This document shows positions 28,278-29,979 of a stretch of 64,000 nt of DNA, in pieces. The notes below the pieces were generated by a model that worked only from the letters and a program-made list of their open reading frames with translations, did not search any database and had not been told where the DNA came from. The position numbers and the translations under genes are program-made. The stretch is from Pseudomonadota bacterium (GTDB lineage: Bacteria; Pseudomonadota; Gammaproteobacteria; Eutrophobiales; Eutrophobiaceae). Where the stretch lies: NCBI GenBank assembly GCA_013112535.1, contig JABFGI010000001.1, positions 581,243-645,242 on the forward strand, read 5' to 3'. Position 1 is the stretch's first letter. Every line of letters starts with the position of its first letter.

Positions 28278-29018
28278 TTAGGCGGCTACTTGAAAATTAA
28301 ATGCACGACCAGAACGAGAGATTTGATCTGTAATCTCATTAGCGACAAAAGGTGCCAAGTTAACGTTACCGACATTCAAATTGAAATCTAACGAAACAGA
28401 TTGATTGGCACTATCCGTTGCCGTAACAAGCACATCAATAATATCACTATCGATAGCAGCCGGTGTGCCGCTAAACGTTAAGGTATCGGCATCAAATGTT
28501 AACCATGTAGGTAACGCATTACCATCAGACAACGTCGCTTGTATATCTAAAAAGTCTAATGCTTCATCAGTAAAACTATCAGCGGCAAGTTGATAACTAA
28601 ATGGCGTATCAGAAAGAATAACCTGATCTTGTGAGGTATCATTTAAGATAGGTGAAAAATTTGGGTTATTTAAAATACCTGAAGGAAACTCTATCGTTTC
28701 GATGAAACCGGTCTTCGTATAATAATTAGATACTCGTACCTGCCCTGTTGCATTCGGTATTGTACTAATATCGGAATTTACAGAAACATATAGAACTAAA
28801 TCATTGCCATCACGATTATGGCTATCGAGTTGCGGCGTTGCCTGGTTACTGCCATCTACAATGGTTTGAAATAGTAATTGATCAAAACCACCGGCATCAT
28901 TAATCGTGATATCAAAACCATCAGTAATGTCCGCACTGGGCTGAAAACGATAGATTGAATCAAACGTATTACCCGTCGTTGGGGTCTGGGTCAGGTCTTG
29001 AATCTTGAATTTATTCAT
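28278..29018 (-). pseudogene. Silent partial cassette 1. It is a paralogue (about 85% nucleotide identity, with perfect stretches over 100 bp) of the adhesin segment ~22036-22735. Its ATG and first 10 codons come from IR copy R3.
   Basis: Constant offset of 6252 bp to the adhesin gene (for example CGAGAGATTTGATCTGTAATCTCATTAGCGACAAAAGGTG at 28315 and 22063). Antisense ORFs 22153-22341 and 28405-28593 are paralogous. Confidence 0.65.
28988..29018. repeat. IR copy R3 (GGGTCAGGTCTTGAATCTTGAATTTATTCAT), the right-end IR of the transposase element; contains the tnp stop and the cassette ATG (ATGA overlap)
   Basis: Exact 24-bp core; inverted relative to R4. Confidence 0.7.
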
Positions 29019-29944
29019 ACCATCTCTTCCTCATATTTTTTAATAATTTTACTTACTGTGCTGTAATGCAGTTTAAAATAATCTGCTATCTCTTTTTGTG
29101 AATGCGCACCCTCTTTATAAGCTTTATAAATCGCTTCATCACGATGATCATATTTCTTTATATAGTAATCGATGGGCTTACTTATGCATTGCCGTTGCTC
29201 TTTCGTGATTTCTGACAAGTCTTTATCTTGAACTTGTTTGGACTGGAGTTTGTTTATGAATTGCTCATCGCCTAAGTAAAGCTGCTGCCTTAAGTTTTCC
29301 CATAAAGGCGATTGCTTTTTACCTTCTCGTATAAATTGTATAAAGTTTTTTTGTGCGGTTGATTGACGTTTACCATAATGACCTAATATCCAATCCTTAT
29401 CTAACCACTGTGGCGCTTCAGCTTTATCTATCATTGCGCGATAGCTACTCCAACGGTACTGCCCTGCTGTTTTTGTAATGTTGGCGCGGACTGGGTTGAG
29501 TAAGACATAACGAACGACTTCTAAAAGATAACTCTCTTTCTCTACTAATATCGCTTTATATCGTCCTTGAAATAGATGCCCTACGCGCTTATGTGTTCGA
29601 TTGTAAGTTTGTGTATAGACACCGTTTAGATGGCGCATACCGCGAGATAAGTTTGCTTCGGCTGTTTCTATCACAAGATGGTAATGGTTACTCATTAAAC
29701 ACCAAGCATAACAATGCCAATTATAACGTTCGCAGGTTTGCGTAATTATTTTAATGAATTCTTTTCGGTCAGTATCGGATGTATATATATTTGAACGGGC
29801 ATTCCCGCGTGATGTGATATGGTAGACAGCACCTGCGTATTCTATCCTTAAAGGTCGCGACATTAACTTACTTCCTTGTCTATGATTCTTATAATCATAA
29901 ACTACATTACTAATCATATGATTTCCATTCATTCTTAGCATCAC
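29015..29944 (-). CDS. Y1 HUH transposase (IS200/IS605-like, COG1943/RAYT-like) with a C-terminal DnaA-C-like HTH extension
   Basis: HuH motif SNHYHLV, catalytic Tyr region QYRWSSY, N-terminal YHITSRGN; 309 aa with HTH tail. Confidence 0.75.
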   Translation of the reverse strand: MMLRMNGNHMISNVVYDYKNHRQGSKLMSRPLRIEYAGAVYHITSRGNARSNIYTSDTDRKEFIKIITQTCERYNWHCYAWCLMSNHYHLVIETAEANLSRGMRHLNGVYTQTYNRTHKRVGHLFQGRYKAILVEKESYLLEVVRYVLLNPVRANITKTAGQYRWSSYRAMIDKAEAPQWLDKDWILGHYGKRQSTAQKNFIQFIREGKKQSPLWENLRQQLYLGDEQFINKLQSKQVQDKDLSEITKEQRQCISKPIDYYIKKYDHRDEAIYKAYKEGAHSQKEIADYFKLHYSTVSKIIKKYEEEMV

Positions 29945-29954
29945 TATAACTTAT

Positions 29955-29979
29955 AATTCAAGATTCAAGACCTGACCCC
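29955..29979. repeat. IR copy R4 (reverse orientation; AATTCAAGATTCAAGACCTGACCCC), the left-end IR of the element. It also supplies the stop of the upstream lipase-like ORF.
   Basis: Exact reverse-complement core. Confidence 0.7.

Follow-up and report, generated by a model that had tools for sequence, protein, structure and literature searches.

The TIRtron and its transposase

The 64-kb stretch of contig JABFGI010000001.1 from a Pseudomonadota bacterium that was analysed here (the window) contains, at positions 28988-29979, a single gene for a Y1 HUH tyrosine transposase enclosed between long terminal inverted repeats (TIRs). By shared features, rather than by the MCL clusters or hidden Markov model profiles of the authors who classified such proteins, this element is a member of a named class, the TIRtrons, and its protein is a TIRYT of RAYT Group 1, TnpA_Y1 subclass 2.1. 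The TIRYT gene (29015-29944, minus strand) encodes 309 aa from a GTG start, and the repeats stand 3-10 nt from the ends of its open reading frame (ORF). We consider it rather probable that this TIRtron, with a repeat built of two parts, is a long-term resident of its locus, and that copies of the repeat mark the breakpoints at which a type I secretion system (T1SS)/adhesin locus was fragmented.

The initial annotation, made from the letters alone, had ascribed to this ORF an HUH motif (NHYHLV) and a catalytic tyrosine (in RWSSY), and both assignments are confirmed. They correspond to H87-Y88-H89 and Y168 and are unchanged in 30/30 homologues of an alignment covering 50-83% identity. In the same alignment W165-S166-S167-Y168-R169 is invariant and provides the serine motif beside the catalytic tyrosine that marks subclass 2.1, and the H-Y-S..V-S stretch of the last helix is invariant or nearly so. 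The protein comprises a catalytic core (approximately aa 33-170), a helical linker and a C-terminal helix-turn-helix (HTH) domain (helices 283-290 and 294-308). Pfam identified Y1_Tnp at 1e-14, as the annotation had anticipated; the RAYT equivalog of NCBIfam, REP_Tyr_transpos, fell narrowly under its threshold (79.1 bits vs 80), and the IS200 equivalog, NF033573 (transpos_IS200), reached 19.7 bits vs a cut-off of 55. More than 8000 homologues are present in public protein records, some under the JGI names 'REP-associated tyrosine transposase' or 'RayT'. A public protein of identical sequence, P0001, starts at an ATG at 29863 and has 282 aa (window 29018-29863, minus strand); its name, 'addiction module toxin RelE', conflicts with the Y1_Tnp/TnpA_REP fold and is a mis-annotation.

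The tail of the protein had been described as a DnaA-C-like HTH. The C-terminal HTH stands, and its likeness to DnaA is backed at the fold level only: Pfam sees a generic HTH just under cut-off (HTH_23, 24.0 bits vs 24.6), and Bac_DnaA_C found no match in the 30 homologues. Searches of the PDB by sequence gave no match for the single TIRYT sequence, a marginal one to 4er8 (E 0.12) for the 30-sequence profile and marginal MarR-like ones for the C-terminal peptide alone, so that the structural identity had to be sought by a fold search. In the AlphaFold model built from the 30-homologue alignment (mean pLDDT 77.9, core and tail >85), the C-terminal domain is predicted to have a double-strand-DNA-binding fold similar to that of DnaA domain IV (PDB 3PVP, 1J1V).

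On the 3' side of the gene the TIR, GGGTCAGGTCTTGAATCTTGAATT, occupies 28988-29011 (plus strand); on the 5' side its counterpart, GGGGTCAGGTCTTGAATCTTGAATT, occupies 29955-29979 (minus strand) and truncates a lipase-like ORF (29958-30512). As initially annotated, they are perfect 24-bp inverted repeats (28988-29011 vs 29955-29978, 24/24 complementary), and one extra G on the upstream side extends the match to 25 nt. The motif occurs six times in the window and not once in 100 dinucleotide-preserving shuffles. GGGGWSAS, the family motif, is carried by the upstream repeat as GGGGTCAG (29972-29979, minus strand). In the downstream repeat the sequence is TGGGTCAG, and a weak partial duplication, GGGGTCT followed by GGGTCAGG, lies ahead of that repeat at 28981-28995. 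The inner half is a tandem TCTTGAA-TCTTGAA. That this core is not a hairpin, as the annotation had held, was borne out, a single repeat being unfolded as single-stranded DNA (ssDNA; -0.3 kcal/mol, z +0.48); it carries no GTAG and no self-complementarity. A natural 57-nt doublet does fold (-29.7 kcal/mol, z -12.9). No end hairpins were found at 28988-29979, TIRs being present in their place. Rfam at permissive thresholds returned nothing relevant between 26500 and 32500, and a literature search on the repeat sequence itself retrieved unrelated primer or short-hairpin RNA matches only. The idea that the TTGAAT units serve as a -35 box was dropped: a sigma-70 scan gave no promoter-like site in the upstream repeat and, overall, fewer sites than in shuffled sequences.

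Two-part anatomy and distribution of the repeat

A scan for the exact 21-mer GGTCAGGTCTTGAATCTTGAA, with one genome per species, returned at least 120 stretches with 145 exact copies in them. Among the matches listed are metagenome-assembled genomes (MAGs) assigned to at least 12 phyla, with representatives of Acidobacteriota, Patescibacteria, Actinomycetota, Bacillota, Chloroflexota, Elusimicrobiota, Nitrospirota, Desulfobacterota, Methylomirabilota, Tectimicrobiota and Alpha-, Beta- and Gammaproteobacteria, and one isolate, Desulfobulbus alkaliphilus. The flanks of the 21-mer match the native base composition of each genome, so that contamination is not the explanation. Conservation in these loci ends abruptly outside (G/A)GGGTCAGGTCTTGAATCTTGAAT. 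The repeat is adjoined by a TIRYT gene in 19/120 listed loci, the proteins being 36-76% identical to that of the window.

A second set, 80 metagenome loci, was picked by protein similarity alone (45-56% identity to the window TIRYT). In almost all of them (G/A)GGGTCAGGTCT(TG) is found at both ends of the gene. Across the family GGGGTCAGGTCT(TG), which makes up the outer 12-14 nt of the repeat, is near-universal, and the inner 10-12 nt vary by subfamily, with CAATCATGCAT, AAATATCAGT, CCTTTTGCCT and AGCATCGTAGCA among the examples in this set. Inner-half types group on the protein tree, the window's own type occupying several branches. We make no claim that every inner half consists of a tandem 7-nt repeat: at offsets 7-8 self-similarity was 0.39-0.41 vs 0.30 in shuffled sequences, at most a tendency and one inflated by related sequences.

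The variable half of the repeat goes together with the variable end of the protein. In our own reading of the table of loci, a predicted recognition helix (residues 294-308) of the ..VSK.. type accompanies a TGA(A/T).. inner half in 23/25 loci, and a ..VSR.. helix accompanies TGAA in 4 of approximately 58; loci of the ..VSK.. type occupy several separate branches of the tree. Other pairings are HFTTVGR with AGCATCGTAGCA, HYSRVSR with TGCCTTTTGCCT and SYATVSRAV with TACATTTGACA or CACATTTGACA, and TGAATCTTGAAT and TGCAATCATGCAT exemplify contrasting inner-half types. A relic TIRtron of the window, described below, joins VSYATVSRAV with TTACATTTGACAT (within its repeat GGGTCAGGCCTTACATTTGACAT); the same combination is found in L150 and L156 and, nearly so, in L144. 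From these sequence patterns we infer that the variable HTH may read the variable inner half, the conserved HUH core acting on the invariant outer half.

As to arrangement, 47 of the 145 listed exact copies stand in doublets spanning 37-150 nt, 25 in pairs of 700-1350 nt, mostly of approximately 0.9-1.0 kb, which is the size of a gene-bearing element, and five in pairs of 151-700 nt; single copies number 47, and 21 are undetermined. An identical doublet is found at several sites of one MAG, in either orientation (L029, L053, L059, L097), which points to mobility of a putative REPIN-like non-autonomous form.

In places gene and repeat merge. Many homologues (P0034, P0071, P0099, P0107 and others) end in ...(S)RFKT* or ...KT*, encoded by the downstream repeat TCAAGATTCAAGACCTGA, and therefore gene and repeat overlap in those lineages; the annotated N-terminus of P0107 (GQVLILEF) reads through the upstream repeat. 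A 5.5-kb metagenome contig, L142, carries eight copies of the subtype GGGGTCAGGTCTTTACTTTTGCAT in 5.4 kb, each after an A-rich run ending in GG, a pattern which suggests that the bases just outside GGGG may also be family- or genome-specific.

Many repeats are preceded by a characteristic footprint of the form (X + GGGGTCA)n followed by GGTCTTG..., where X is 5-13 nt long and differs between copies. Up to four units were counted (L140, L162, L179), and L204 and many other loci also carry such duplications. They occur at 15/144 repeat ends in the motif-chosen set and at 17/133 in the protein-chosen set (approximately 10-15%), recur in unrelated lineages and are present also in a plasmid copy of Legionella adelaidensis. 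Their inner edge is sharp and lies at GGGGTC(A)/GG: the counts of perfect duplications climb to positions +4/+5 and drop to 1 at +6, and at positions inside the repeat they do not exceed 2. This edge may mark a candidate cleavage site, in GGGGTCAGG. As a hypothesis only, the junction duplications would reflect cleavage at two positions, GGGGTC^A^GG and a second one outside X, with strands exchanged between them; such exchange would yield both duplication and deletion products. In rare copies (L068, L014, L070, L088) the inner half is kept, and GGGGTC or the outer G-run is missing or the outer end is shortened in some other way, as would be expected of products of unequal exchange at GGGGTC^A.

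Repeat copies and breakpoints in the T1SS/adhesin locus

The initial annotation had made its proposal depend on the repeat recurring elsewhere in the genome or the ORF matching HUH profiles, and on the element not being part of a larger insertion sequence (IS) with a DDE transposase, and both points turned out in its favour. Six near-exact copies and one of another type lie within 27274-31884 (4.6 kb). No DDE transposase is involved: the repeats border the TIRYT ORF directly, and the ORFs around the TIRtron are T1SS, immunoglobulin (Ig)-domain and ORF6N genes or have no Pfam match.

Some of the additional copies belong to an internally deleted mini-TIRtron (31635-31884), which has 41-nt inverted ends (90% complementary) and in which just the final 46 codons of a TIRYT gene remain (31679-31819, minus strand). 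Over 149 nt it shows 85% identity to the full element, and its arms pair in ssDNA (-36.6 kcal/mol, z -8.0). As judged against the syntenic loci L201 and L205, it truncates the ORF6N gene at 31885. Both of its ends bear junction tandem duplications: at the left end (31635-31656, plus strand) TCTCTAGGGTC stands twice and is followed by AGGTCTTG..., and at the right end (31863-31884, minus strand) TCTATGGGGTC stands twice. The ORF6N target sequence of L201 is not the source of the duplicated flank. Each end is homogeneous and unlike the other, which indicates that each was duplicated independently. No direct repeat, and hence no target-site duplication, surrounds the mini-element at ORF6N, the sole comparable target between the window and L201 and L205.

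Three further copies lie on the other side of the TIRtron. A solo repeat, an exact 24-mer (28220-28243, plus strand), cuts into the tail of a relic TIRYT on its left. This relic TIRtron (27977-28200, minus strand) belongs to a different TIRYT clade and consists of the repeat GGGTCAGGCCTTACATTTGACAT (27977-27999) and an HTH tail, ...VSYATVSRAVKSYEGGL, inside the ORF 28002-28256; the tail gives HTH_23 and HTH_28 matches in Pfam. It is 89.8% identical to L205 8656-8752 and, being common to both, predates the split of these genomes. Another solo repeat, with two mismatches (GGGTCATATCTTGAATCTTGAATT, 27274-27297, plus strand), stands at the junction of an Ig-domain fragment and a membrane-protein gene.

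The gene set of the locus is shared with other genomes. In the window it includes a C39-ABC exporter (34115-36256), HlyD (32181-33518), ORF6N (31834-32181, cut by the mini-element after approximately 98 codons), He_PIG Ig-domain fragments (27301-27999 and 28278-29018), all identified by Pfam, and a giant ORF of 3748 aa (15459-26705) downstream of the TIRtron. The TIRYT homologues P0002 (83% identical) and P0006 (77%) share this context, i.e., ABC, HlyD, ORF6N, TIRtron, a 278-297-aa gene and a giant ORF; in L201 and L205 the TIRYT gene is held between ORF6N and the giant-protein operon, and L205 shows the simplest arrangement. Flanking genes are approximately 76-80% identical in DNA between the window and the two syntenic genomes. 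The ratio of nonsynonymous to synonymous substitution rates (dN/dS) between the window and L201 is 0.083 for TIRYT, 0.063 for HlyD and 0.10 for ORF6N, with similar dS values near saturation. The shared locus, between T1SS genes and the gene for a giant Ig-repeat protein, and this ratio identify the TIRYT gene as an old resident here, kept by purifying selection.

Against this background the window is rearranged. As compared with L201 3376-5006, the 3' part of ORF6N and the DUF4915 gene that follows ORF6N there are absent from this part of the window. The block with a 302-aa gene and the N-terminus of the giant protein is, as compared with L201 and L205, now placed upstream of the TIRtron and cut by it at 29979; the original lipase-like N-terminus of the 3748-aa ORF, apparently lost from that ORF, is now found in this upstream position. 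Two copies, 98% identical, exist of a 300-nt piece from this block's coding sequence for the lipase-like N-terminus (30016-30315 and 31318-31617), and the second abuts the mini-element. Beyond the TIRtron the window holds Ig-domain fragments, the solo repeat, the relic and the membrane-protein gene. New junctions coincide with repeat copies at 31885, 31635, 29979, 28988, 28220-28243, 27977-27999 and 27274-27297; the sole one without a repeat is the inner end of the 300-nt duplicate, at approximately 31318. A degenerate repeat suspected at approximately 31280-31325 gave no convincing alignment and was left out. The junction at 27274-27297 is common to L201 (5169-5288, 82.5% identity) and the relic is common to L205, which makes the hotspot an old one.

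One of the ORFs opened by a repeat had attracted attention before. The right repeat was said to contain both the transposase stop and an ATG, so that downstream sequences would acquire an N-terminal 11-residue peptide. The stop-side repeat is in fact the left one in window coordinates, and this 24-bp repeat contains neither codon: both are located 4-7 nt farther into the element, the TGA stop at 29015-29017 and the ATG that overlaps it at 29016-29018. An open frame does run through the repeat in three window ORFs, of which 28278-29018 reads outward through the left repeat and begins MNKFKIQDLTQTP. A function of the peptide is nonetheless less likely than a by-product of ORF extension, since the gene downstream of the element in L201 has a more plausible start beyond the repeat (MMKNKK...).

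Two further observations concern the neighbouring genes. The stop of a small gene overlaps the start of a large ORF at 26705 (ORFs 26705-27319/15459-26705) and at 30512 (29958-30512/30512-31420), and likewise at 7733 in L201. A BrnT-type toxin gene and a small partner are located between ABC and HlyD in L205 (5148-5658); the window is without both.

Interpretation and comparison with known systems

The reading we prefer combines residence, two-part recognition and repeat-linked rearrangement in one mechanism. The outer 12-14 nt would be the substrate of the conserved HUH/Tyr core, and the C-terminal DnaA-domain-IV-like HTH probably docks the enzyme on the inner half of approximately 11 nt. Two inverted copies pair into a long ssDNA hairpin, with a stem of approximately 25 bp in close doublets, and a gene-bearing pair would need approximately 1 kb of ssDNA to form it. 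A nick by the enzyme in one strand, close to the outer end and most likely inside GGGGTC^A^GG, would be followed by a 5'-phosphotyrosine link and by joining of the strand to another 3'-OH; repeat-bounded segments would thereby be copied or moved, and repeat copies recombined. A bolder version, which we regard as conceivable and rather doubtful, would make the TIRYTs sequence-programmable ssDNA recombinases, with GGGGTC^A^GG as the fixed site of the HUH domain, the inner half as a clade-specific address read by the HTH, the duplications as footprints of strand exchange and the reshuffling of the adhesin as the local outcome.

Several points weigh against this interpretation. Close relatives of the window TIRYT, P0003 (81% identical) and P0018 (72%), are found in unrelated contexts, so the gene also moves and can be called a resident only in part. 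Within the 64-kb window no repeat copies lie outside 27274-31884. The match between helix and inner half has exceptions, as HYSM(V/I)SR proteins use TGAATCTTGAAT, and it is confounded by shared ancestry. The edge of the junction duplications is not unique either: in L201 both ends are duplicated farther in, to the first TCTTGAA unit. Rearrangements among seven repeat copies of 24-41 nt could come from host recombination or replication slippage without the enzyme. Our literature search found no biochemical or experimental work on subclass 2.1 or Group 1, and the assignment of domains to repeat halves, the cleavage position, the strand used and the enzyme as the cause of the rearrangements are what we infer.

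Of the other explanations, the one that fares best, although we think it unlikely, is an active autonomous IS of an unrecognised family, the 992-bp unit of which hops and spawns derivatives akin to miniature inverted-repeat transposable elements, with no host-level role. It would account for the perfect 24/24 ends, the internally deleted derivative with matching ends 1.7 kb away, the gene-bearing pairs and short doublets of the same repeat in many genomes and the close relatives in non-syntenic contexts. Bertels et al. 2017 (PMC5581495) likewise describe RAYT Group 1, the largest and most widespread group (21 classes), as the most IS-like except Group 6, with 6.3% duplicated copies and 1.2% on plasmids. 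Nevertheless, the element is found at the same locus in two other genomes, with a divergence and a dN/dS like those of neighbouring host genes, and only one intact copy exists in 64 kb. Vehicles are scarce: a search of 72,556 plasmids gave one full-length match, and 50,697 phage records gave none. At only 85% identity to the full copy, the mini-element is old, and no target-site signature was found at the ORF6N site.

We hold it improbable that the repeats are chiefly operators and the HTH protein a regulator of itself or its neighbours, with the rearrangements left to ordinary recombination or slippage and not to HUH catalysis. An operator-like feature is the position of the upstream repeat, the end of which usually lies 23-24 nt from the start codon in the 80 protein-chosen loci, and a double-strand-DNA-binding fold and a recognition helix that tracks the inner half would suit a regulator as well. 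However, the invariance of the HUH and tyrosine residues and the strong constraint on the core are difficult to reconcile with a dispensable catalysis, many repeat copies (doublets and singles) are distant from any TIRYT gene, fixed-edge junction duplications recur across unrelated lineages, and the upstream repeat has no sigma-70-like promoter.

Programmed diversification, in which TIRYT recombination would shuffle or truncate the giant-adhesin and T1SS cargo cassettes in parallel to the link proposed for procA, is by analogy suggested by the repeats that bound Ig-domain and lipase-like fragments beside the C39-ABC/HlyD exporter, by differences in block order among the window, L201 and L205, where repeats stand at the junctions, and by C-terminal TIRYT fragments between cargo fragments as around procA clusters, but it is just as improbable, because the fragments resemble broken genes (the cut ORF6N and the cut lipase-like N-terminus) and not in-frame alternative cassettes, the three genomes compared give no evidence of reversible switching, a comparison of three genomes is a small one, and most repeat copies elsewhere are without such context.

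The DNA target of the largest and widest RAYT group was previously known as an 8-nt consensus only. The window and its relatives supply concrete substrates, namely an outer motif that is fixed, inner halves that vary with the HTH, a candidate cleavage position and natural hairpin doublets; the locus itself offers a case of repeat copies coinciding with gene rearrangements. If the preferred reading is true, an HUH nuclease would have gained addressable specificity by the addition of a double-strand-DNA-binding domain, and resident TIRtrons would reshape neighbouring genes.

Among known systems, the TnpA transposases of the IS200/IS605 family (IS608, ISDra2) act on elements with subterminal imperfect hairpins and without TIRs, and are single-domain proteins of approximately 130-155 aa; the window TIRYT scored low against NF033573. 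REPtrons (RAYT/TnpA_REP with REP, BIME and REPIN; Nunvar 2010, Ton-Hoang 2012, Messing 2012 (PDB 4ER8), Corneloup 2021 (PMC8266576)) are another such system, and 'REPtron-like' was a fair initial description. Strict membership did not hold up, since the window repeat is no GTAG-tagged palindromic REP and is unfolded as a single copy, and the equivalog score lies just below its cut-off; the TIRYT is approximately twice as long, with an added HTH domain, and resembles 4ER8 only marginally. The abundance of the TIRYT repeat also appears far lower than that of REPs. The repeat differs from the DnaA box, in agreement with Quentin et al. 2018 (PMC6006769), who found GGGGWSAS unlike it.

The prochlorosin (procA) loci of marine picocyanobacteria (bioRxiv 10.1101/2020.03.09.984088) contain a TnpA_REP of the same subclass 2.1 as the window, with full-length genes and many C-terminal fragments interspersed with gene clusters for exported products. 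The study of those loci found no inverted repeats, whereas in the window they are explicit and stand at the junctions, and here a giant Ig-repeat T1SS protein takes the place of lanthipeptide precursors as cargo.

The alternative raised initially, an undescribed IS type, is superseded, as the arrangement was named in 2013 and later classed (PMC6006769, PMC5581495). RAYT-like genes between long TIRs that bear no relation to REPs were reported by Di Nocera, De Gregorio and Rocco 2013 (PMC3733652); these TIRs share GGGGWSAS and occur as singles, dimers and clusters, and the authors gave the elements the name TIRtrons and the proteins the name TIRYTs. Most TIRYTs were placed by Quentin et al. in TnpA_Y1 subclass 2.1, the marks of which are the serine motif by the catalytic tyrosine and a C-terminal extension like HTH_23, HTH_28 or Bac_DnaA_C (PMC6006769). 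The window element has such an extension, and in its length beyond that of RAYTs, its gene between long non-palindromic TIRs carrying GGGGWSAS, its mainly chromosomal location and its very wide taxonomic spread it is a TIRtron without essential difference. The same repeat likewise occurs elsewhere singly, in dimers and in clusters, with seven copies in the window and, among the listed matches from other genomes, 47 in doublets and 47 single. Relative to the available portions of these papers' text, the additions made here are the longer outer motif GGGGTCAGGTCT, the inner halves that track the HTH, the junction duplications and a rearranged syntenic T1SS/adhesin locus.

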